DNA from: Prorocentrum cordatum
Taxonomy: Eukaryota
Reading direction: 5' to 3'
Assembly: GCA_963575745.1 (NCBI GenBank)
Contig: CAUYUJ010000248.1
Location: 558,001-622,000 of the forward strand
DNA: 64,000 nt
This document shows, in pieces, positions 1,455-64,000 of this stretch; positions within the stretch are counted from its first letter, which is position 1; every line of letters starts with the position of its first letter. The notes under the pieces were generated by a model. The model was not told the DNA's origin. It saw nothing but the letters and a program-made list of their open reading frames with translations, and ran no database searches. Both the position numbers and the translations under genes were made by a program.

Positions 1455-1952
1455 GGGAGGAGGAGGAGGAGGAGGAGGAGGAGGAGGAGGAGGAGGAGGC
1501 GGAGGAGGCAGAAGAGGAGGAGGAGGAGGGAGGGGGGAGCAGGAGGAGGAGGAGGAGGAGGAGGAGGAGGAGGAGGAGGAGGAGGAGGAGGAGGAGGAGA
1601 GGAGGAGGAGGAGGAGGGAGGAAGAGGAGGAGGAGGAGGAAGGGGAGGGGGAGGAGGAGGAGGAGGAGGAGGAGGAGGAGGAGGAGGAGGAGAGGAGGAG
1701 GAGGAGGAGGAGGAGGAGGAGGAGGAGGAGGGAGGAGGAGGAGGGGAGGAGGAGGAGGAGGAGGAGGAGGGAGGAGGGGATAGAGGACGAGGAAGAAGAC
1801 GAGGAAGAGTTTGAGGAGGAGGAGGATGAGGAGGAGGAGGAGGGAGGAGGGAGGGGGGAGGAGGAGGGGGAGGAGGAGGAGGAGGAGGAGGAGGAGGAGG
1901 AGGAGGAGGAGGGAGGGGGGAGGAGGAGGGCTCCTCCTCTTCCTCCTCCTCC
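1455..1952. repeat. (GGA)n microsatellite switching to (CTC)n at 1930/1931
   Basis: Direct reading. It separates the two head-to-head SL elements. Confidence 0.95.
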
Positions 1953-1974
1953 TCCGTAGCCATTTTGGCTCAAG
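1953..1974 (+). other. Perfect 22-nt dinoflagellate spliced leader (DinoSL) at the LINE 5' end
   Basis: TCCGTAGCCATTTTGGCTCAAG, 22/22 match to DCCGTAGCCATTTTGGCTCAAG. It is not followed by a GT donor, so it is not an SL RNA gene. Confidence 0.97.
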
Positions 1975-2135
1975 ATGCCTGGTTCCCTTGGGGCCAAAAC
2001 AGATACCGCTAGTCCGCGGCTTGACCTCGAAGTTCTTCGCCTTTACTGCAGGGGTTGGGCACCTGCACCAGTCTCATCCTTTCTCACGGAGGTCCCTCTT
2101 TCGAGGGGTTCATTCGCCTCCACTCACGGTCATTC

Positions 2136-3377
2136 ATGGCCCAAGATGGCTGGCACAGCAGTGGTGGGAAGGCTCGTCAGCAGTACCACGACCCGTGCCC
2201 GCACTGCAAGTACCGCTGGAACTTCAAGAACAACCACTGGTGCTACCAGTGCGCGGGGGCCCTGGTGTCGCAGCCAGACGGTTCGAAGCGGCCGCTTGGG
2301 CAGTGGGCTTTTGGGCCGCCGCAGTTCTCGAACTCGCCGTTCCACGTTCAGCCTGCTGGGTCTCCCTTCGCCGACCCGACGCCGTCGCAGGCGGCAGCGG
2401 CAGCCGCCACGGGCTCAGGCAAAGGTCGTGGCAAGAAAGGCGCTCCGCCGCCATCGCGGGGGAAGGCCAAGGCGAAAGCCGCCGCCTCCGCGGGCCATGT
2501 CGACAGGCGTCCGTGGGTATACCACCAGGGCTGGTACCCGTACGGCGGCGCATCAGCTCCACTCGAGTCAGCCGATCCGATGGCGGCCCTGCGGGCCAAG
2601 CTGGGCGACGACGGCACCGAGGCGCTGGCAGCAGTGGAGGCCCTCCTCGCCAAGAAGGAAGCCCCGCCTCCTGCTGCACCGCGGCAGCCGCTCCTTGAGG
2701 AGGACGTCTCAACCAAGGGGGTGGCGTACCGTCGTGCAAAGTCCTGGCTCGAGCGTCGCTCTCTCAAGGTCTTGGAGGGTGAGGCCTGGCTGCAGGAGGC
2801 GCGTGATGCTGAAGACCTTGCGGTCGCGGCTGCTGTCGAGGCCAAGCGCTCGTGGGAGGAGGCCTGTGCGAAGCAGCTCCCGCAGCCAGTGGCGGCGCCA
2901 CCCGCTGCTGCAGGGGCATCGTCGCTCAACCTGTCCACGCTCCTGGGCGAGGACAGCGAGGTCGAGGGGCTCACCATCGTCGACGGCCCAATTTTCAGCA
3001 CGGAAGGCCTCGACCTCGACCTTGCGGACCTTCGCGAGTGGGATCGAGTTAAGAACAACCTTGCGGCTGGCATCAAGGCAGAGATCTCCAAGGCGCTCGG
3101 CTCTTCAGCAGAGCAGCTCGCTGCTCTTCGAGCGGAGGCCAAGCAGGTGTCCTTGCGGATGCAAGCGAAGCGCAGGCGCGGTGATAGCGCAGGTGATGGC
3201 GCTGGCGCTAGTGCTGCTGCTCAGCCTGGTGGGTCAGCTGCCTCTGGCTCTGTGGGCGACGGCGGCGGCGCTTCCTCAACCGGCGCAGCTGATGGGCCTG
3301 ATGAAGTTCGAGCTGCCGCCAGGCGCACCGCCAAGGAGTCCTTTGACACTACCCGAGCAGCGCAGCAGGGACTTTAG
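2136..3377 (+). CDS. LINE ORF1 protein (RanBP2-like C4 zinc finger, Ala-rich/coiled-coil)
   Basis: MAQDGW...DPCPHCKYRWNFKNNHWCYQC (CxxC...N...CxxC). Intact ORF ending TAG at 3377. Confidence 0.75.
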   Translation: MAQDGWHSSGGKARQQYHDPCPHCKYRWNFKNNHWCYQCAGALVSQPDGSKRPLGQWAFGPPQFSNSPFHVQPAGSPFADPTPSQAAAAAATGSGKGRGKKGAPPPSRGKAKAKAAASAGHVDRRPWVYHQGWYPYGGASAPLESADPMAALRAKLGDDGTEALAAVEALLAKKEAPPPAAPRQPLLEEDVSTKGVAYRRAKSWLERRSLKVLEGEAWLQEARDAEDLAVAAAVEAKRSWEEACAKQLPQPVAAPPAAAGASSLNLSTLLGEDSEVEGLTIVDGPIFSTEGLDLDLADLREWDRVKNNLAAGIKAEISKALGSSAEQLAALRAEAKQVSLRMQAKRRRGDSAGDGAGASAAAQPGGSAASGSVGDGGGASSTGAADGPDEVRAAARRTAKESFDTTRAAQQGL

Positions 3378-3379
3378 CA

Positions 3380-6300
3380 AGTCTACTGATCCTGGCTTGC
3401 CGTCGACCTTTTACGGCGACATCTTCATGAGTGCTGCGGAGGAGCTCGTCTTCGATCCGCAGTTGTACCTAGCCAATCTCTACAAGGTCACGTTGAACGA
3501 GGGCTGCCCTACGACTCAGTATGGTGACATTTTCCGCACTGAGGCGGAGGAGGTTCACTTTCTCCCCGACTTTCAGCCCTTGTCGGGCATTCTTCAGCTT
3601 AAAGATCAGGATCCCCAACGCCGAGCTGCGATTCACCATCGTGAGGTACTTGAGCGGAGTCTCCGCTCTTTCGCTGCCAGATGGATCCCTGACGTTAACT
3701 CAGCGAACGAGGCTTCTGACGAGGACCACTGGGAAGGGCATTGCATTCCCTTCATCTCGACGTGGTTGTCTCATCCGTTGCGAAGTCCGCTTATTCCAGA
3801 AGCAGCCGCTGCAGCAGGTCATGGGAATCCTGCCATTGCAGCTCTTGATATGGCCAGGCGTATCTGTGAGCGCGCTTGGCGCGCTCGGCGCAGCCAGCGT
3901 GCTCGCGATTTGCAGATGCTGCGGAACTTGGAGTCCGAAGATCACGAGTTGTGGCAGGAGGAGCTGCAGCGACAAGCGATGGCGCTCATGGAAGCTCTGG
4001 AGACCCTCGACACCCGGGCGCCGCAGCGGCGCGTGCAGGGCGGCTTCCAGGTGGCATTCCCCTTTTGCGGGCGTCCCCACCTTGCAGCGCCGCCCGACCA
4101 GGGCAGTCAGGTTGCTTGCGCCCCTGCCCTCGGTCGGACGACTGGCTGCGCGAGCTCTTCGGCAAGTTCGTGGCCTGCTTCGCCCTTGGGCGAGGGGCGC
4201 AGGGATTCAGCCCCTGGTCGTCACAGGCCCCCGCCCACAAGTACTACGGCTACTGGCAGTTTGGCTTCAGTTTCCGCGCCTCTTTCGGGTTCGGCCAGTT
4301 TTGCGAAGATTGCCACCTGTGCTTCGGGCACCGCGAGTGGGTCTCAGGAGGCGTCAACAGGATGCCCTTCCAGCACGGGGTGCATTTCCACGGGTGCTTC
4401 GATGGCTCCGCCCTCGACTCAGATGACTTCGGCGCCAGAGGCGGTGGGTCTTGCGTCGGGCTGGGACGACGCAAATCACGACCCCTTCGATGACCTGGAT
4501 CACATGTTGGACGCGGAAGCGGCTGAGTCCATTCACGCCGTGCCCACAGGTACTGAGGGAGCCGAGGAGCCACAACCTGCTGGCCCCCAGGTCCCTGGCC
4601 GCCCTGCTGACCCCCTTCCGCCCGTCGGCTTCAGAAGGAGGATGGGGGGCGTCTCAGGAGCGTGGCCGAAGCTGCCGAGGACTCTAAGTTATTGGAGGAT
4701 GCGGCCCCAGTCCCACAGCTCTCTGTGCTGCAGAAGCTTTCGGGTCGACCTGATCTGGTTGCTCCTCTCGCTGCAGATGCTGGTTCATTTTCTTTTTTGC
4801 ATGGGAATATTACAGGATGGGGTCCACAAGCTCGCAAGCTTCTTAACGCCACCTCGTTTGCCATGGTGTGCTTTGTGGAGATGCACGTGTTACAGTCCAG
4901 GTTTGCTGATGGCGTCGACCAGACCTTTGATGCTGACGAGTGGAACACGGCTTACACGGGCAGCAAGGCTACGGGCAAAGGAGGCTCTTCTGGCGGCGAG
5001 CTTATTGCTATCCGCAAGCACCTGGCCCCCACCAGCTTTCAAAGTATTCGCCAGGCTGCAGTCAGGCTTGGCAAGTCGGATCCATTCCGGGGGCTTGCAC
5101 CCGTGATCCTGCATCTCAGCAGCGGCAATGTGGTTATCGTGGCCATCTATCTCTGACCTGGACTTTCGACATCAGGCCACAACCAGTCTATGTTGATCCG
5201 CTTGGGTGCTTTTCTGTCGGCGTTAGCCGACCCCGGGATTGTTGTTGGCGACTGTAATCTGGGACCTGATGCATTTCTTCGTTCAGGATGGCCCTCGGAG
5301 TTGAAGAGCGAGATTTTGTATCCAGACGTGAAGGTCACCTGCGACAAGGCGGCTCAAGGTGCATTGAGCGATTATGGCTTGGTCAAGCAAGGCACTACAT
5401 ATCGCTTTCGTATGCGAGGTTTTGCGTCAGTTCCTCGGAAGACGCACATCGCCTTGCAGGTTGACAGCATTGGGTCGAAGCGGAGGTGGTGGCATCAGCG
5501 CCTCGTCACGGCACCAGCGTTCCCGACAGTCAGCCGCCCCAAAAAGCAAGCTGACCCAAGCAGTAAGGCCTCGAATAAGAAACAGGAAGCGCTTATGCAA
5601 CGTCGAGCGAAGCTTCCAGAATACCCTCAAGCTGAATTTGACCTACTTCACAAAGCGGCCGCGGCTACGGCGGCAGAAGCTGACTCAGTCTCTTTCTATC
5701 TTCCTGAAGAGGTTTGGCCCTCAGGTGCTATTGCGGTGCCACCGCTCGGGGAGATCAGCCGACGCACGCTGAAGCAACATTTCTTTGGGGACATTAATGC
5801 ATCGGGCTCGTCGCAGCTTATCAGCAGGTACAACACCTGGACTACCAAGATGTAGATGGCCTTCAGTGTTCACCATCAGCAGGAGGACTTCGAGCCTCTG
5901 CGTGGTGCAGGTCCCCAGCTCAAGTGGCAGTTGTCGCAGGCTGCTCCAGGCCGTGCTCATCTCTCTGACCCAGTGGGCGAGCAGTGGGGCATTGTGCACA
6001 CGCTGGTATTGGGGACGGTGTCGCTGGCCAAGCATGGGCGTGACCCCAAGCAGCTGTCCGATTGCTTTCAGCAGCTTCAGCGGCATGTTGCTCATTTTCA
6101 ATCATCAGACAGACCGGGGTATTTTGGCACATCTGGTCAGGAGGAGCGTGATCGCTGGCTTTGTTGGTCGGCCACCATACCCTCGGCCAATCATGATGAA
6201 CCTGACGACTGGTCACATTTGACGGAAAGACTTGCTCATCGGGCGCAGGCGCGCTCTCTCGCAAAGGGCAGGCAACAGTTCACCAAATGGGCCCTTGAGC

Positions 6301-9300
6301 AATGGCGTCAACATCCTGGGCGTCTTCATGCTATGTCTCGTGGCCCTCAGCCCGCGGTGCATGAGAGTTATCGCCATGGGCAGGTCATCTCGGAACCTTG
6401 GAGTTCATGGGCGACAAGCGGAAATATTGGCGATCCTTGTGGACTGACGCAGTTGACGACGTTGAGGCCATCACCCATATGCCTCAGCAGTTGCATTATG
6501 AATCTCGGCGAGACCCCTTGCCTCCCTTGGAGTTGGAGTCTTTGGAGCGAGTGGTGGCCAAGCTTCCTGCGAAGGCCTCTGGAGTCGATGCTCTCACTCC
6601 TCGTGATCTTCAAAGGGCCCCCCCCCCAAGGTCGGGTGGAATTCCTGGAGTTGCTTGACCAAGTGGAGCAGGAAGGAGTTTGGCCAGCGCAGTTGCTTAG
6701 CAAAATTTGCGCTCTCCTTCCCAAACCCAAGGGAGGGGAGAAGGTCATTGGGCTCCTGGCTGGGTCTGCGAAGATCTGGAGCCGCCTGCGCTACGGTGCT
6801 ACCTCAGAGTGGACTGAATGTTTGGAGGCGCGCTGGGACACGGCTATTGCAGGCAGCAGCGCCTTACGCGCCGCTCTCCTGAGGGCTCTACTTGACGAGA
6901 CGGCGACGGTGCTGGGCATCACGGTGGCCACATTGCTGCTGGACTTCGAGAAGTTTTACGACTCCCTGTCCTGGGTCCTTTTGGGTTGCGTTGCGCAGCA
7001 AGTGGGGTGCCCGCCCATTGTGGTATGCCTGGAGGTGCAGTTATGTGTTGGTCCCCGCTTTCTTCGTGGCCAGAAGGGAGCGTCCAACGCCATCCTGCCG
7101 ACTCGGTCGCTAGTGGCGGGTTCCCCCCATGGGGTGCGGTCAGCTAAGCTCTTCCTGCACCCGCTGTTGCAGCGTGCTCAGGCCAGAGCCGATTTTACGA
7201 CCTTGTGGACATTCATCGGCGATTCTGTGTTGCGTTCAGAGGGACCTCAGGATAAGGTAAAGACTCGCATGGTTGCGTCTGCTACTGAGTTCAAGCAGGG
7301 TTTGGATACTATGCGGTTGGTGGTCCCCCCTAAGACGATGCTTATCTCGAGTGTGATCAGCTTGGACATAAAGTTGGCCAAGAAGCTTCGTCACAAGTCT
7401 ATTCCAGTGCAGTATTGTTTGGAGGCGGTAGACCTTGGTGTCGACGCCACAGGTGGTGGACGGAGGACGGTTCGCACATCTTCCCAGCGCACTGCTAACG
7501 CGGCTCGCCGTGCTGCTCGTCTGCAGCGTTTTCGGCGTCATGCACGGCTCCGCAAGGTCTCTCAGGGCCTGTGGAAAACTGGGGCTTTGCCGCAGGCAGC
7601 ATATGGACATCAAGTTCATGGCCTTGCACCCTACCAGCTCCTTCGCCTTCGACGTCAGGCGGCTATTGCAGGAGCAGGCCCGTTGAAGGGCAGGTGCTTG
7701 ACCAGTACATTAGCCATACTGTATGGTCAGAAAGATCCCGCCTTGGAGCTGAGGCGCCAGCTTCTGGCTGAGTATCTGACGGTCTGGCGCCTTCACCCTG
7801 AAGTTCATCAGAGAGTTGAAGCATCCTGGCCGACAGTTCTTCGTCGTCTGGAGATTGCGGGGCGGGCAGGGCGATGGCGATTGGTCAAGGGACCAGTGTC
7901 TGCAGTGATTGCCACGTTGCTTGATGCTGGGTGGAAGCCATCCTCAGCTACTTCCTGGTGGCGCCCAGAGCATGGTGGATTTGCTGAATGGCAGATCCCC
8001 ACATCATCTCTGGGCGGGTTTTCTGGCGATATGATGGATGTGGGCGGAGTGCTGGAGGACGTTATGCTTGATTTTCACGCTCAGCTTTGGTCTCGAGCTT
8101 CTGAGCGCGAGGGAGCTGAAGACCTCGCTGGAGGTGCTGATCTCTATTGGGCTCGCCGAGAGTTTGCGAAGTTCTCGCAGAACGGGGACCGCGACCAGGC
8201 TGGCCAGACACTTTGCGTGGCTGCTGGAGCGCAGCGGCCGCGGGTGCGCCAGTTCCCGACGGGCGCGGAGGAGCAGCAGCGGTGCCCCAGGTGTCTGAAG
8301 GCGCCTGAGACTCTGAGGCACCGCATCTGGGAGTGCGAGTGTAATAAGGATCATGAAGATTATTCCTTGTCCGCTCCCCTAGTGTCTCAAACACTCGTTC
8401 ATTGTCATATGAATCCAGCCTTGTGGCTTAGAGGCGTTCCCCCGACCGACCATACTCACCGTGAGTTTGTGGACCCGCCGGAAGCGGAGGGTTTGAAACC
8501 TCTCGGCTCGACGTCCCTGACCGATATGTCGATTCCCTGGTCGTTTTTGGGGGCGGTTCGGGAGGGCGGTTTTCCTCCGACCGTCGGCGCCGCCGTCGTG
8601 GCGCGGCGGTTGTTTCGGTCAGGAGAACCCCAGGGACGTCTGCGTGGGAAGTGGTCGGGGGCGTTTCTGGAATTCTAGTGGGAAGAGCCCAAACGGTCTC
8701 CCGCTCTGAGTTGTTGGCTTTCGCCTTGTGCCTTGAGGGCACCACTGGCCCCGTTCATTATGTCACGGACCACTTTCCCTTGATTACTGGTTGGGGGCGG
8801 GGTCGGGTTGGTGCTGTGGGCGGGAGGAATTGGGACTTGTGGTTCCGAATTAAGACCGCTCTTGCTTCGCGAGGTGAAGGTTTAGTAACCTTGGAGCGAG
8901 TGGCTTCTCACTTGGACACGGAGGCCGAGGGCCTGGCGGCCCACCAGGTTTTCCTCAGGTCTGGAAATCAACTTGCGGACCGCGCGGCTTCAGAGGCCGC
9001 GGAGCGTTCCTGGCACCTTTCGGCCCGCGCGGACCCTCGAACTGATTTCTGGGATGCTCAGACCGCCCTAATTAGAAGGAGAGCGCGGCGCGCCCTGGTC
9101 GACTCGTCCGCGGCCGACCCCAGGAAGGCCCGCCCTGCGGTTGCGCCCTTGGAGAGAGCGAGGCAGGGTTCGAAGTTGGATCGGGCGCTTCGCGTCTCCC
9201 CTCGAGTTTGTGACGTTCGGCAGCGCGTTTCGTTGCAGGAGTTGCGAGGTGCTGTGTGATAAGAATGACCTCTTAGAGGTCTCCAAGGCGCCGTGCATCC

Positions 9301-9761
9301 CTGCTGTGGGGGTGGATTCTTTCCCCTCCGACATTGTCGTGGTGGTCCCTGGCCCCGTCACGTTGTCTGGAGCGGTCTTGCATCCGTCCCATAAGCTTGC
9401 GTTTTGGGATTTGCATAGTCTGTACTTTTGCCAGTGTTGTGGCCGAGCGGCTACTTCGGACGGGCGCCAGTTGATGCTTGACTGTAAAGTGCCCTATCGC
9501 AAGGGCATTGAAAATCTGGCCCGGATTCGTCGTGGTTTGTACCCGAGTTACGCAGGCCCGTCCAAGGCGAGTGTCCTGCTCCGCCACGCTCGGTTTTCTG
9601 CCGTGGCCGATCAGCGAGCTCGAGCGCGAGATCCCATCCCGTCGGAATTGGCTGTGCCTCAGGGCATCGGAGAGGCTTTGACCGTTTCGGTGGACGAGGC
9701 TCCTCTCGTCCCTCTCCCTGTCGACCCTAGCAGCGATTCCGATTATAGGGGGTTGCCTTAG
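3380..9761 (+). pseudogene. LINE ORF2 polyprotein, disrupted: APE endonuclease (~4780-5470), reverse transcriptase (~6560-7450), CCHC finger (~8280-8345), RNase H (~8670-9000), C-terminal Cys/His motifs
   Basis: APE: GNITGW, VCFVEMH, VAIYL, VVGDCN, SDYGLV, KTHIAL. RT: KASGVD, LLPKPKGGEKVIGLL, LLLDFEKFYDSL, LVAGSPHG, FIGD (degenerate YxDD). Finger: CPRC...ETLRHRIWEC. RNase H: QTVSRSELLA, VTDH, NWDLW, SHLD, GNQLADRAA. In-frame stops at 5156 and 5855 plus several frameshifts. Confidence 0.9.
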
Positions 9762-11028
9762 GCACATGCGTTCCTGCTTGCTGCTCTCTCCCTCTCTTGC
9801 CCTGCCCGCCTCTCGTTGCTCGACGTTGCTTGCCAAAACGTTCCAAAACGTTCCTCCTCCTCCTCCTCCTCCTCCTCCTCCTCCTCCTCCTCCTCCTACT
9901 GCCGGAGGTTGATAGGCCTCCCACCCTGACGCGTCGATTCGCGAATCGGCCGCGTTCGGTTCGCGAGAGGGCGTCGCGGGCGTCGGTTTTTCGGGTGCCT
10001 GGGTCCGTCGGTTTCGGTTTTGGGCCGTTGTCATTAACAAGGGTGGTTTACTGAAAGGAGGTTTGTCCACCGCCGAGACAGGGGGCCGCTGTGGAATTGA
10101 CCGCCTCCCACACGATTCGAGACCCCCCAAATGTCGGAGAAGGAATATCGGCATAAGTTCGGACGCGACTCATGGCAGGTCAAATTCTGACTCTGCCCTC
10201 GTCCAAAATCCGGCTTCATCCGGTTTGCTCCCGCTTAGTCCGGCGTAATACCGTTCTATCCCGCTTAATCCCGTTTAATTCGAGGCCCACTCCGGGGCAA
10301 CCGCCCCCCCAATGGGGCTTCATTATTTTTAGTCATTCCGACGAAAAACTCCTGGTAGTTACCTCCTAAAGCAGAAGAGCAAGTTCTCGGAACTCCGCGC
10401 GGGCGTCTTGGATCTGCTCTCGGGGTCCCCTTCCGCGGCGCCGCCCGGCGCGCTCCGCGCGCTGGGGAGGGGGGGGGGTCCGGCACCGATCCAAGATGAT
10501 GGGCTTGTTTTCCACCACCACCAGTAGAAGTTGAAGAGAGGGGGTCCTCCTCCTCCTCCACCACCTCCTCCTCCTCCTCCTCCTTTTCCTCCTCCTCCTC
10601 CTCTTCGTCCTCCTCCTCCTCCTCCTCCTCCTCATCCACATCCACATCCTCTTCCTCCTCCTGCTCCTCCTCCTCCTCCTCTTCGTCGTCCTCCTCCTCT
10701 TCCTCGTCTTCCTCCTTCCCCCATCCAATTTGTGGTGGTACTGGTGGAAGACAGGCCCATCACCAGAGGTCCGCGCGGAGCTCCGGAAGTTTGTGCATAC
10801 GCAGTCAATTATTCATAGTTTCTCCTGGGAGGCCCTCGCCGTCACGGCTGGGTTCGCCTCGGAGTTCTGGTCAGAGCGCGCCTCGGGTCGCAGGACTGCG
10901 CCGCACTGATACCTTGCCATTGCGCTGCGACCTGCAGCCCGCCCTCGCCGATGCATCGGTGGTGCGTTGGCGATGCGGCGTGATCCTCCGACCCCGTCTG
11001 CGCCGCCCCCATGTGGGAGACCTCCAAG

Positions 11029-12715
11029 GAGGCGATTCCCAATGTCGTCTTCCTGACCGGTCCGTGGGACCCACTGAACGTGGTGCAGAGGTCCGCGGAG
11101 GTGTTGCCGAAGGGTGCGGAGTTCCGCTTCTACAACTACTCCCAGATGGACCAGTCGGTCCTGGAGATCTCCCCGCTCCTCGAGCGGGAGGGCGTCTACA
11201 ACGTCTAGGGGGACGAAGAAGGACAGAAACATAAAAGCTCGGAGGTCCGAGCGGATTTCTCGGATCCGAGCTGGACCCCCCTTGCGGCGCCTCCGGCGCC
11301 GCCCCTGGCGCGCTCCGCGCGCCAAGGAGGGGTGTCCAGCGCCGATCCGGGAAATCCGCGCAGACCTCTGAGTTTTTATGTTTATGTCGTTCTTCGTCAC
11401 CCTAAACGTCAGCGACGCCTTCCAGAGCCTGCGCCCACGGTCTTTCCGCACGGACCTGTGGCGCTACATGGTCCTCTGGCAGAGCGGGGGCATTTATTTT
11501 TAAGTCGGGCTTGTCCTTCTTCAGGAGGAAAATTTTCAAATAGTCCAAACATCATCAGGGGACGATGTTTTGATTATGTTGTGCTAGTTTGTTCTACTTT
11601 TTGATAATTTTTTATTTTTCGTCCCAAATCCGCCTGTGGGAGGACACGCCCGACCTAAATCTATCTGGATGCCAAGATTGCCCTTACCGCTCCTGTCTCC
11701 ACCTGGGTCGACCAGCAGCGAGACTCCCTCGCGGTGTGCTGGGACAGGAAGCAGAGAGCCGAGATGTACTGGACCGCCATGCTGGCCGCGCGGAGGGGCA
11801 GCCCAACCCTGCTGGCCATCATAAGGCAGATCGTCTCGAACGTGCAGGCGCGCTACTACGGGCCGCCGCGCGGCGTGGACCACGCCGACCTGTACATCAC
11901 GGGCCGGGGCATGCTGACGGAGGTCCTGCGCAGAGAGACGCCGCGGGGCCTCCGCTCGAGCTGCAGGCTGCACGTGAGCCAGATGTGGAAGGTGAATATC
12001 CCGGAGTCAAAGGTCAGCTCGGTTCGCCTTAAAAACGCCCTGTACGTTTTCGTTAGCGTTTCCTGCTTTGGGCTCTTGACAGGCTGAACACGCAAACAAA
12101 AGCGCTACGTGTTTTTCTGCGTTTTCAGGGCTGTCGGTTGGGCGTTTTGTTTTGTTTCCCCTTCCAGGCTGAAAACGCCGAAGAACTGGAAACGCGAAAG
12201 CAACGAATCATTGTTTTAGCGTTGTAGTTGTTTCTGTTGAGACTTGAAACGCGAAACAATGATTTCCAAGACGCCGAGCTGAAAACGCTAAAGAAAGCCC
12301 TGGGCATATTCAAGGCGGCCCAAGAAGGTCAGGGAGACCACCGGCCGCAAGCGCGTCATTGCGGAGGTCGACGAGGATGTGCACAGGGCCATGCGGTCTT
12401 GCGACAACTGCGACTCCTACGGGTCCCTGTTCCAGCGGCACCAGGTCTACTGCAGCGAGCGGGGTCCCAGGTGAGCGACGCAAAAGAAAACGGGTTCGAC
12501 TGCGCCGACATTCGCGCGTCAGCTCCCCGCGTAAGGTCGCGCGCAAGCGCCCTCGTCTCCAATGTGGTGTGCCGCTCTGGCGGCCCGCGTAAGCTGCGGC
12601 GTACGGCTGCTGTGCCATCTCGCGTGAGACCCGTTTGTGATCGTCGCTCAGGTGCCAATTCTCAGTCACCCCATTGCCGCCGGCAGAGAGGTACGCGTCC
12701 CTGGTGGTCTCGTGA
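11029..12715 (+). CDS. Glycosyltransferase, GT32/Gly_transf_sug-like, 5'-partial; coding blocks 11029-11205, 11411-11491, 11659-12012, 12328-12470, 12652-12715
   Basis: Removing each insert plus one TSD copy gives one open frame: EAIPNVVFLT...AFQSLRPRSFRTDLWRYMVLWQSGGIYLDAK...AMLAARRGSP...LYITGRGML...YGSLFQRHQVYC...LVVS*. DLWRY..L...GGIYLD is the GT32 signature. The last two introns are GT-AG. The first two lack precise canonical sites, so it may be a pseudogene. Confidence 0.8.
11206..11404. mobile_element. MITE family B with ~70-bp TIRs and 6-bp TSD AACGTC, inside the GT gene
   Basis: Start TAGGGGGACGAAGAAGGACAGAAACATAAAAG matches the reverse complement of the end. Related copies at ~10367-10820, 18910-19075, 20675-20884, 20929-21313. 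Confidence 0.85.
11500..11658. mobile_element. MITE family A (hAT-like, ~160 bp, 8-bp TSD), inside the GT gene
   Basis: TTAAGTCGGGCTTGTCC...GGACACGCCCGACCTAA; TSD ATTTATTT/ATCTATCT. Confidence 0.9.
12018..12324. mobile_element. TIR element forming a precise GT-AG intron (12013-12327), TSD AAGGTCAG
   Basis: Perfect 8-bp TSD (12010-12017, 12325-12332) containing AG|GT; imperfect TIRs CTCGGTTCGCCTT/AAGGCGGCCCAAG. Confidence 0.85.
12472..12650. mobile_element. TIR element forming a GT-AG intron (12471-12651)
   Basis: Ends TGAGCGACG...CGTCGCTCA are perfect inverted repeats that supply the splice dinucleotides. Confidence 0.75.
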
Positions 12716-20318: not shown

Positions 20319-20340
20319 TCCGTAGCCATATCGGCTCGAG
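20319..20340 (+). other. Spliced-leader relic (duplicated at 20501-20521)
   Basis: TCCGTAGCCATATCGGCTCGAG, 19/22 match to DinoSL. Confidence 0.85.
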
Positions 20341-20346
20341 GCAGCA

Positions 20347-20500
20347 TCAAGTCGGGCATGTCCCTCTGCAGGAGGAATGTTCAGAAATAGTCAAGATATA
20401 GTCTGGGGACGATTCTTCAATTTTTTTGAGTCTATATCTTCTGACTAGTTCTTAATGTGTCCTTTCATAGTCCGCCTGTAGGAGGACATGCCCGACCTAA
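20347..20500. mobile_element. MITE family A copy flanked by a 26-bp duplication
   Basis: TCAAGTCGGGCATGTCC...GGACATGCCCGACCTAA between two copies of CCGTAGCCATATCGGCTCGAGGCAGC. Confidence 0.88.
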
Positions 20501-20605
20501 CCGTAGCCATATCGGCTCGAGGCAGCGCTCTGGCGCACGTCGGCGTGGCATCCCGCGGCGCGAAGGTCACCGCGGGGGTCGCGGCACCTGGCATGCGGCC
20601 CGCGC

Positions 20606-59745: not shown

Positions 59746-60608
59746 TTGGTCCGTTGGCCATCTGCCTTCCACTCCTCGCGCACCCGCCTCGCGCAGCGGC
59801 TCCTGCGCGACCCGCCCAGCGCAGCCCCCCCTCTGCCACGCCAGGCTGAGCCGACGCCGAGCGCGCCCCGCCGCAGCCGCCGCTGCAGTGCGGCCACTCG
59901 GCCGCGGAAGGACACGCGTGTTCGGCCACTGCGAGCGCTGCCCGCCTGCCACGGGGCCGCGGACGAGCGACGTGCGGCACAGAGGCCGACGCGAGCCTCC
60001 GCGCGCCGCGCGGCGCTCCTCCAGGGCCACCGGCCGCCCTTGCGGGGGCACGTGCGGCCAGAGCACGCACCAGCCGCCGCGCCCCCCGGGCACACTGGAG
60101 GTAGCCCCGCGCTCGGTGGGCCCTGGAAACGACAGGGCCGTCTTTTATACCGGTTCCGGTTCCGTCGCCGTCTTTTTTTTATTTTTTCCGTTTCTGGTTC
60201 CGGCTCCAATCGCGGAACCGTTATTTTGCCGTTTCCGGTAACCGTGTTTTTTGTTGTTTATCTTGCTTCCGTTGTCCAGTAACAGTTTCTCGAAAACGGT
60301 GGAACAACGGCCCTGCCGTTTCCGGGGCCCAATAAGGCCCAGGGGGCACTCAACACCGCCCAGGGAATTGGGACCAAGTAAGGTGTGCGGCGTCAGGTGG
60401 ACGGGGTCTTCCAGCATCGCTCGCGCAACATGGCCCCGCAAAGTGAGGCATCACACGATTGCTGGTGGCAGCTCTCATCTGAAACTCGACATCGGAACGG
60501 ATGGAGAGGAACTCGTTCAAATCGTGGGGAGTCGTGCTTGTGTGTACGTGTGTGTGTGTGTGTGTGTGTGCGTGTGTGTGTGTGGGTGTGCGCGTGTGCT
60601 TCGGATTT

Positions 60609-60644
60609 TCCGTCGCCCTTTTGGCTCAAACATTTTGACTTCAG
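60609..60644 (+). other. Tandem spliced-leader relics
   Basis: TCCGTCGCCCTTTTGGCTCAAA (19/22) followed by CATTTTGACTTCAG. Confidence 0.7.
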
Positions 60645-62415: not shown

Positions 62416-64000
62416 GACGATCGGTCACCTCATAACCATCGAGATATGATATACTCATCATACCGCTATTCCTGGGATCTCTCCCCCGGCCGGGGTGCGC
62501 TCGGGCTCGAAGTTCGAGGCGAACCCGGCGGTGGCGACGAGGGCCACCCGGGAGGCCCGAACAAAAGGCGGAGTCGAGGGGAGGCCAGTCTTGCCCCCCT
62601 TGGCCTCGTGCGCTCGTGCTCGTGCGCCGCGCCCCACCCAGTGTATAATGCAATCCTTCAACCTACTGCCAGCATGTTACCAGCCTGGGACATATCCCTA
62701 TCCCTATGCTGGGCACCTCCTCATCACGATGCCAATCTTAGGGATTCCCTTATGTTTTCAGGGCGAATCCCTAAGATTGTCATCGCCTTTTGGCGTGTCA
62801 ATCATACGTTCGAGGCTGGTAAGCATGGCTTCGTGGCCTTACTTGGGTCCCCAGGTTGCCTAGGCAGTTCCCTGGCTAGTACGGGTGGCCTTGCTTGACA
62901 CGTCTGGAAAAAGACCCCCCTCCATCCCCGAGGTTCTCGGCTCCCCTAACTCGGGTCCCGTCGCAAAGGGTCCCGGGCACCTGTGCTTCTCATCATCGCT
63001 TCTTCCCACCCTGCCGGCTCTCCGCTGCAGCGATCTTTCGCCTCGCAGATGGCCCTCTTGCCTCGGCCGTTCTCTCCGCGGCTAGGCCGCATACAGCTGC
63101 CTGCGTACGTCCGGTCTCTTCGTGGTGGTTCACTGCTTCGTTCACGGCCCCACGCAGGATGGTCTATCTACATTGCTTTGGAAGGGTGTCCCACCCCGCC
63201 TTGGCAGTTGGCGGGCCGTCGCTTGCACCCCATCGGCGCGGCGAAGGAGCAAGTGTGTGTGTGTGTGTGTGTGTGTGTCCACCCCCGGCTGCCCCGCGGC
63301 TGCCGCCCCGACGCCCCAGCGCTGCTCCGCCGCCGCGGCCTGGCCCCGCTCTGAGCGGGCCTGGCCTTTGTCTCCCTCCCGCCCGCGCTGGGCCTTCCCC
63401 CTCCTCCTCACGTGCACCGCTGCTTGACTTGCAAGTATATGCCCTACATTTGCCCCGTCCGCCAGCGCAGCCACTTTGCCTAGCCTCCGACGCAAAAAGT
63501 GTGTGTGTGTGTCAGTGCGTGTCTGCGTTTTCAGGCAAACCTGCATGACCTCAGTTTCGTTTTCACACGTATTCGTTTTGTCTGGCCCCTAGCCCTAATC
63601 TTGGCGACCGCTTGAAGTTCGATGGCATGTTGATTTGTCAGTTCAGTCAGTTGATGACCAGACGGTAGCCCGTCGCTGCAGTAGAGGAGAAGTGTCTGTG
63701 TGCGTGACCGGAATAATGAGAGAAAGAGAGTCTCTCTTTCTCCCATCTTCTCTCTCTCTCTCTCTCTCTTGAGAGAGAGAGAGGAAAGGAAAAGAGCAGA
63801 GAAAGACAAACAAGCACAATAGAGAGAGAAGGAACGAGGGAGGGAGGGAGTTTGGGAGGGAAGAGTGAAGAACATATATGATAGTATGATCTGACAGCAG
63901 AGGAGAGGAGATGAGATAAGTGAGACGGAGGGAGAGCGCGATACATATACATATATATATATATAATGATGGACATAATGAGGGCGAGAGAGAGAGAGAG

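Follow-up and report, generated by a model that had tools for sequence, protein, structure and literature searches.

We analyzed a stretch of 64,000 nucleotides from the dinoflagellate Prorocentrum cordatum (assembly GCA_963575745.1, contig CAUYUJ010000248.1, positions 558,001 to 622,000 of the forward strand), hereafter called the window and numbered from its first letter. It contains a 7.9-kb non-long-terminal-repeat (non-LTR) retrotransposon, which together with its flanking repeats occupies positions 1931–9897 and to which an earlier reading of the sequence (the original prediction) had drawn attention. We interpret this element, with a probability of roughly 0.7, as a full-length but inactivated P. 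cordatum long interspersed nuclear element (LINE) that is capped by a DNA copy of the spliced leader (SL) of its host and was inserted inside a (TCC)n microsatellite.

The upstream flank holds a 474-nt (GGA)~159 array at 1456–1929 (no strand assigned; 158.7 copies of period 3 with 86% matches in Tandem Repeats Finder, TRF), the polarity of which is opposite to that of the element's tail. It directly precedes a 22-nt (TCC)-type tract of opposite polarity on the plus strand (1931–1952 by reading, with GC before it; TRF row 1931–1955, 8.3 copies), and this tract abuts an exact 22/22 copy of the dinoflagellate SL (DinoSL), TCCGTAGCCATTTTGGCTCAAG, at 1953–1974 of the plus strand. The original prediction had the element begin at exactly this copy, behind a pyrimidine repeat on the sense strand; direct reading and a pattern search agree on the former, and the 22-nt tract bears out the latter. 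The SL and the preceding repeat share one base, the initial T of the former, so that the unambiguous SL amounts to 21 nt. This 21-nt core has one exact match in the 64 kb, along with three matches with 3 mismatches, the number expected by chance at ≤3 mismatches being 0.00 (100 shuffles). We take the exact copy as the 5' end of the element.

Immediately behind the SL, an ATG at 1975 opens a non-coding-looking frame in the 5' untranslated region (UTR; 1975–2135, on the plus strand like all the following parts). The region of the first open reading frame (ORF1; 2136–4442) starts with MAQDGWHSS and displays a CPHC...CYQC zinc-finger-like motif and coiled-coil-like stretches; Pfam gives a weak match to Zn_ribbon_PADR1 (E=0.011) and none to a DNA methyltransferase (DNMT) domain. 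ORF2 opens with an apurinic/apyrimidinic-type endonuclease (APE) region (4611–5852; E=2e-12 to the APE (Exo_endo_phos) part of an intact relative, P0006, with GDCN of the window aligned to GDYN). It continues, as seen in protein comparisons and in the contigs described below, with a reverse transcriptase (RT) and a CCHC motif (5856–8675), followed in a shifted frame by an RNase H domain (8465–9256; E=4e-18 to P0006 residues 1200–1387, Pfam RNase_H) and, after a second frameshift back, by a Cys-rich C-terminal domain (9072–9761; E=5e-7 to P0006 residues 1417–1530). The order APE, RT, RNase H and Cys-rich C-terminus is collinear with that of P0006.

An exhaustive HMMER search with the window's RT ORF returned 3328 relatives at E≤1e-3, 193 of them at E≤1e-30. 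RVT_1 was detected at E≤0.001 in five of the nine relatives scanned (including P0002, P0006, P0007 and P0009), and above the curated cut-off in P0006 only. By Pfam, P0006 combines Exo_endo_phos, RVT_1 and RNase_H, P0002 has Exo_endo_phos and RVT_1, and the other long relatives carry RNase_H with or without RVT_1. A scan of NCBIfam gave no match, and the nearest solved structure to the window's RT is, weakly, human LINE-1 ORF2p (E=2.6e-4). Direct and inverted repeats of ≥25 nt are absent from 1931–9897 (0 of each), self-blastn returning the self match only. The absence of long terminal or terminal inverted repeats, the location of the APE N-terminal to the RT and the LINE-type RT thus identify an APE-type LINE; with RNase H and the Cys-rich domain making up its C-terminus, there is no restriction-like endonuclease (RLE) C-terminal to the RT.

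The window copy is full-length but dead. Its ORF2 is interrupted by two in-frame stops (TGA at 5154–5156 and TAG at 5853–5855) and at least two frameshifts, which lie around the RNase H domain; the ORF1 region changes frame; and the catalytic box of the RT, at 7212–7223, reads FIGD instead of the FIDD of other copies. The best match of the RT ORF in a search of 5.8 billion proteins, the 772-aa "unnamed protein product" P0001 of P. cordatum at NCBI, is an annotation artefact, namely a mis-annotated dead transposon: tblastn resolves this gene model into nine pieces of the LINE and its 3' flank in three frames, running from 2136–3197 to 11386–11490, and its exon pieces switch frame within the ORF1 region. 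Gene models of this kind on dead LINEs inflate dinoflagellate gene counts.

The 3' UTR (9762–9854) ends, by reading and TRF, in 2.2 copies of CCAAAACGTT (9833–9854), with AAAAC present twice. It is followed by a perfect (TCC)15 on the plus strand (9852–9897; 15.3 copies, 100% matches), which is either the tail of the element or the 3' half of the target microsatellite. There is no poly-A at this end, and the original description of the terminus as a duplicated 10-mer plus (TCC)n was accurate. Since both flanks are (TCC)n, a target-site duplication is here indistinguishable from a split array.

Logan contigs of four runs (labelled "DNA?") were placed on positions 1900–10000, with 1900–1963 and 9845–9909 skipped as repeats. 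Run X1 provided 1043 contigs at 85–100% identity to the window (125 at ≥99%, 276 at 95–99%, 403 at 90–95% and 239 at <90%), which cover all 30 bins; the metagenome run X2 provided 154, run X4 ten, all short pieces, and run X3 none. Position 5156 is G in 13 of 13 X1 contigs, giving TGG and no stop, and FIDD is read in three X1 contigs (with a loose end at 7227). The family is multi-copy and has members with a stop-free 5156 and the FIDD box. Within the window it is represented by a single copy, all 128 of the 128 tblastn matches of 69 family proteins falling inside the element. The 21-nt SL-free anchor at 1975–1995 had no matches in viral contigs and one in metagenome contigs (L001), in AT-rich unrelated DNA and taken as chance. 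Junction-crossing frames used as protein queries (252 aa, region 1–110; then 110 aa) had no match at E≤10, and P0006 as a single query found no related loci in viral contigs.

Four short proteins with 86–90% identity to the window's ORF2 (P0075, P0135, P0154 and P0155) are filed in EukProt under the green alga Pyramimonas sp. CCMP1952, which suggests that this set is contaminated or mislabelled with Prorocentrum-like sequence. Just 3' of the (TCC)15, at 9910–10000, the summed contig depth is far higher (bin 9759–10000: 4067 in X1 and 1269 in X2) and several contigs diverge at 9984 and 9996, which reflects another high-copy repeat or a microsatellite effect; the 64-kb window holds no second copy of this sequence.

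The exact SL 21-mer was also scanned for in two collections, IMG/VR and the GTDB genomes. GTDB contained 20 stretches with 21 occurrences, in contigs of metagenome-assembled genomes (MAGs) that are evidently mis-binned dinoflagellate DNA. Seven of the 21, on four contigs, belong to SL genes, and two of the other 14 head APE LINEs. The first of these, L132 (9096 nt, GC 0.70), comprises a (AGAGAGAC)n/(GA)n repeat (1–116), an SL (117–137; 21/22, the preceding base belonging to the repeat), a 5' UTR, an ORF1 bearing a zinc finger of the RanBP2 type (PF00641, E=1.4e-7) and an intact ORF2 of 2536 aa with Exo_endo_phos (5e-9), RVT_1 (5e-11) and RNase_H (1.3e-5), all above the Pfam curated cut-offs. 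At its 3' end, GGGTAAAAAAG is followed by (AG)35 (9005–9074), directly ahead of which stands AAAAAAG; unique flank lies beyond. The RT and CCHC region of L132 is 25% identical to that of the window over 589 aa (E=9e-16), and its MAG holds no further copies. In both elements the 3' UTR closes with a run of A and then a G or C (AAAAC, present twice, in the window; AAAAAAG in L132), matching the polyadenylation-site motif AAAAG/C reported in PMC2488372. The second, L135 (2541 nt, GC 0.43), consists of 77 nt of non-repeat DNA, a 22/22 SL, an ORF1 and an ORF2 that starts with Exo_endo_phos (E=7e-8) and is cut short by the contig end. LINEs starting with an SL are hence seen in three different genomes, with the order SL-UTR-ORF1-ORF2 common to them. 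Because L132 and L135 are SL-capped as well, the cap looks general, which suggests that a leader-capped build is general for these dinoflagellate elements.

This shared order also bears on the proposal that the window element is a chimera, its SL and 5' UTR having come from another mRNA through an RT template switch, or from a retrogene relic lying beside a 5'-truncated LINE. LINE RTs are known to switch templates. However, the region 3' of the SL is itself multi-copy, with at least five X1 contigs covering position 2022 and a depth in the first bin (71.7) similar to that of the body, and we consider such a chimera highly improbable, the least probable of the alternatives discussed here. Elsewhere, the 118 IMG/VR loci with an exact SL contained no LINE relatives at 1e-8 (best E=0.12), and the ORFs of the GC-rich loci L047 and L049 among them matched no Pfam family. 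Two GTDB MAGs, G002 and G003, contain LINE relatives; six contigs retrieved from them consist of fragments from within ORFs and lack SL-like sites at ≤5 mismatches. The SL-bearing contigs L120 and L134 showed no credible similarity to LINE contigs.

True SL RNA genes continue from the SL into an intron starting with GTAC (the seven occurrences on L125, L126, L131 and L137), and a scan with Rfam places L125 among U1, U2, U4, U5, U6, 5S and SRP genes and L126 among U6, U3 and tRNA genes. In the window, the SL is followed by an ATG instead of the GTAC intron, its flank is not promoter-like, and Rfam finds no small nuclear RNA (snRNA) or 5S genes, either there or beside L132 or L135. The window SL is therefore not an SL RNA gene, and the characterization of the element as APE-type and free of any SL-gene remnant was borne out. 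One might still derive the cap from SL genes, if a LINE had inserted in an SL RNA gene, or if a master copy behind an SL exon were transcribed from an SL RNA gene promoter and its daughters inherited the SL without trans-splicing. Retroelements that target SL genes exist in other phyla, and L135 has GT after its SL and an upstream 12-mer, CCTTTTGGAGGC, that resembles, with 1 mismatch, one upstream of the L125 SL gene. However, this likeness extends to one of the four SL-gene contigs only, the sequence downstream of the SL in L135 does not align with the SL intron, and L132, like the window, has a microsatellite rather than promoter-like sequence upstream and no GTAC intron downstream. We therefore deem an SL-gene origin quite improbable.

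According to published work, every protein-coding gene has its pre-mRNA trans-spliced to the SL, and an SL relic in the genome is the mark of a retrocopy (PMC12014239, PMC5585692, PMC7245778). The SL cap is what universal trans-splicing predicts, and is to that extent less surprising. We infer, as the simplest account, that the LINE mRNA most likely underwent trans-splicing and that target-primed reverse transcription subsequently extended to its 5' end; this best reading of the 5' end, already advanced in the original prediction, is backed by L132 and L135. The parent pre-mRNA would have been matured in the way usual for dinoflagellate mRNAs, receiving the SL at an AG that immediately preceded ATGCCTGG. 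Target-primed reverse transcription by the RT of the element itself would have followed, reaching the first base of the RNA or stopping no more than one base short of it, and the copy would have integrated within a (TCC)n array that would now lie on both of its sides.

A more specific scheme was put forward originally, in which an RNA-templated (UCC)n tail guides a trans-splicing-dependent LINE to (GGA/TCC)n and each insertion rebuilds an acceptor out of the polypyrimidine repeat and the internal AG of the SL (CCGTAG|CC), allowing the copy to be cut from read-through transcripts without a promoter. In its favor, the SL of the window copy immediately follows (TCC)n, and the unique sequence of the element gives way without a gap to (TCC)15. 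Moreover, retrogenes are documented to be re-spliced at the internal AG (PMC12014239, PMC7245778), each cycle leaving a further 15-nt relic, and a retrogene contig, L130, shows the SL with two relics. In the window family, use of the internal AG predicts the SL joined to the relic, CCATTTTGGCTCAAG-ATGCC. However, a tandem of the SL and a 15-nt relic is present in none of the three SL-LINEs (0/3), the sequence after the SL being ATGCC in the window, TCGTA in L132 and GTTGT in L135. Nor is a rebuilt polypyrimidine acceptor general, given the purine-rich (GA)n ahead of L132 and the non-repeat flank of L135, and acceptors are reported by Bachvaroff and Place to be without consensus beyond AG (PMC2488372). 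The internal-AG acceptor is thus not upheld, and we regard the scheme as a whole as unlikely.

With no relics in the three SL-LINEs, any copies that are re-expressed by trans-splicing must use the terminal AG of the SL as their acceptor, as the internal AG cannot be used. In re-expressed full-length copies, possibly out of read-through transcripts, one SL would then replace another at this terminal AG (CTCAAG|). More broadly, relic-free cycling must follow one of three routes: splicing at the SL terminal AG, maturation without splicing, or descent from few masters with an exact acceptor.

The window LINE has (TCC)n at both ends, in the same strand orientation, and L132 likewise has (GA)n at both of its ends. 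Embedding in one repeat on both sides is hence found in two of the three SL-LINEs, and L132, the repeat of which is another homopurine/homopyrimidine type, was recovered through its SL and not its flanks. Further, 4 of the 12 informative non-SL-gene SLs on the MAG contigs lie at or ≤12 nt from a microsatellite end: L120 (GT-rich), L123 ((TCA)n), L132 ((GA)n) and L134 ((GACA)n), of which L123 is doubtful as the remaining contig looks bacterial. The same is true of 2 of 3 SL relics in the window (1954, and 60610 behind (TG)30). These observations argue against the view that the SL cap is real and its microsatellite link incidental or secondary, brought about by abundant target DNA or by post-insertion expansion with no homing. 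On the other hand, sense-strand TCC-type arrays, (TCC)n being the dominant microsatellite there, account for 4.3% of the sequence outside the element (2385 of 56,033 bases; hand-summed) and GGA-type arrays ~2.4% of the window outside it; L135 has no repeat upstream; and the A-run ahead of (AG)n in L132 favors a repeat derived from the target rather than templated by the RNA. Likewise, the SymbioLINEs are described with target-site duplications and conserved 3' UTRs, repeat targets going unmentioned in the main text of that description (de Mendoza et al. 2018, PMC5890265). An incidental link is accordingly a possibility that we take seriously while judging it the lesser one, and for repeat-directed integration, in which the microsatellite would serve in priming, we see the odds as about even. 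Of the microsatellite homing proposed at the outset, the embedding in a single repeat thus recurred in L132, whereas L135 departs from it and the window copy could be a chance landing.

Several points weigh against our overall interpretation of the window element as an inactivated SL-capped LINE inside (TCC)n. Its 5' and 3' junctions are seen in one P. cordatum copy only, and the landing of this copy in a TCC-type array could be due to chance, with a probability of about 0.04. The window's own Pfam score for the RT is sub-threshold (RVT_1 E=0.026; no match at 0.01). ORF1 of L132 shows no significant similarity to ORF1 of the window, and an A6 run stands between the 3' UTR of L132 and its (AG)n; L135, for its part, represents the 5' part of an element only and is without an upstream microsatellite.

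Within 60539–60630, a (TG)30 is followed after 12 nt by a decayed SL relic with 3 mismatches at 60610. A (GT)13 is situated ~2.6 kb downstream (63253–63278), with no clear ORF between the relic and this (GT)13. An old retrocopy within a GT repeat is one possible reading, though only a weak hint, as (GT)n arrays are frequent in the window. At 20320–20526, a 26-nt unit made up of an SL relic with 3 mismatches and 5 further nt is duplicated, with one copy on either side of a ~155-bp AT-rich insert that has terminal inverted repeats. This insert falls into a ~160-bp repeat family with more copies at ~11500, 26017, 26175, 45215, 46834, 55444 and 57164, which probably corresponds to the introner or miniature inverted-repeat transposable elements reported for P. 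cordatum (PMC10666404).

The closest described family, compared by description only, is that of the Symbiodinium LINEs, SymbioLINE/SymbioLINE-Dnmt, which shares with the window element the three ORF2 domains Exo_endo_phos, RVT_1 and RNase_H and the lack of poly-A, and whose 5' as well as 3' UTRs are conserved (PMC5890265). The ORF1 of SymbioLINE-Dnmt encodes a DNMT, whereas that of the window element has the zinc-finger-like motif; the term "spliced leader" has 0 occurrences in the main text of PMC5890265, and microsatellite flanks are likewise unmentioned there. In Amphidinium carterae, the gene for the peridinin-chlorophyll a-protein has a genomic 21/22 SL exactly at its 5' RNA end, for which trans-splicing exactly onto the identical sequence, or a message without trans-splicing, was proposed (Bachvaroff and Place 2008, PMC2488372). 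The same two alternatives arise for the LINE, but the A. carterae gene is a host gene in tandem arrays and not mobile. DinoSL-relic retrogenes, too, have a DNA-encoded SL at the 5' end (22/22 in the window element), which marks a reverse-transcribed trans-spliced mRNA (PMC5585692, PMC12014239). The window element differs from these in being autonomous in type (APE, RT, RNase H) rather than a retrocopy of a host gene, and in having a single complete SL, no relic tandem and a repeat tail. Slamovits and Keeling reportedly described such relic retrogenes in 2008.

A physical tie between retroelements and SL sequences is also known from SLACS, CZAR, CRE1/2 and NeSL-1, RLE-type elements that reside inside SL RNA genes. 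In contrast, the window element is APE-type, begins with the entire SL and is devoid of an SL intron, promoter and snRNA cluster. APE LINEs within one simple repeat, with the repeat replacing poly-A at the 3' end, include Waldo, Mino, Kibi and Koshi of the R1 clade, Dong and repeat-tailed CR1/L2 elements. The elements described here differ from these microsatellite LINEs in host and probably in clade, and their embedded copies number only two, in different repeats, (TCC)n and (GA)n. The literature searched, which left supplements, subscription journals and Repbase entries outside its scope, held no description of an SL-capped, repeat-embedded LINE.

The mediator of reverse transcription in dinoflagellate retroposition is given as unknown by Song et al. 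(2017), who also found "RNA-dependent DNA replication" to be enriched among SL-tagged genes (PMC5585692); Ty1/copia elements have been proposed for this role (PMC3942190). A LINE copied up to the SL would imply that LINE mRNAs enter trans-splicing and that this RT reaches the capped 5' end, and it offers a concrete candidate for the retroposition machinery. As an SL directly next to a simple repeat characterizes both LINE insertions and some retrogene-like contigs, the question of which element makes the retrogenes becomes testable by flank analysis. The anatomy also suggests a promoter-free route of expression for retroelements in genomes that are transcribed as long arrays. Tentatively, and with the balance tilted against it, one might extend this to dinoflagellate APE LINEs as a class whose 5' end is supplied by the host SL. 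In such elements trans-splicing at the terminal AG would restore one perfect SL per cycle, maturation in transcribed regions would be promoter-free, integration would be preferentially into homopurine/homopyrimidine microsatellites, and the class would supply the reverse-transcription machinery, long sought, behind the SL-tagged retrogenes, many of which would also abut microsatellites.

The scans for the SL yielded some further observations. In IMG/VR, the exact 21-nt DinoSL is present in 119 stretches, mostly AT-rich giant-virus MAG contigs (e.g., L009, L011, L020, L051, L054 and L059). Most of the 136 distinct SL contexts in this collection have a conserved AT-rich motif (e.g., ending in aaatcaattttttattttttatttttaaatataaatttta) before the SL and gene-like sequence after it. 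It looks as though giant viruses of dinoflagellates have equipped many of their genes with an encoded host SL that follows a promoter motif; among literature titles we found none describing SL-encoding giant viruses. On the 209-kb MAG contig L127, a bare SL without attached gene-like sequence has the same 19-nt sequence, ttttgcttgcaggcgtgag, on both sides, an arrangement that resembles the insertion of an SL alone, accompanied by duplication of its target site. Finally, several GTDB bacterial MAGs (e.g., those with Limnohabitans, Rhodoferax and Pseudomonadota labels) contain dinoflagellate contigs (L120–L138, G002 and G003), among them clusters of SL RNA, snRNA and 5S genes, retrogenes and LINE fragments with open frames of ≤2369 aa, a contamination that is worth flagging.

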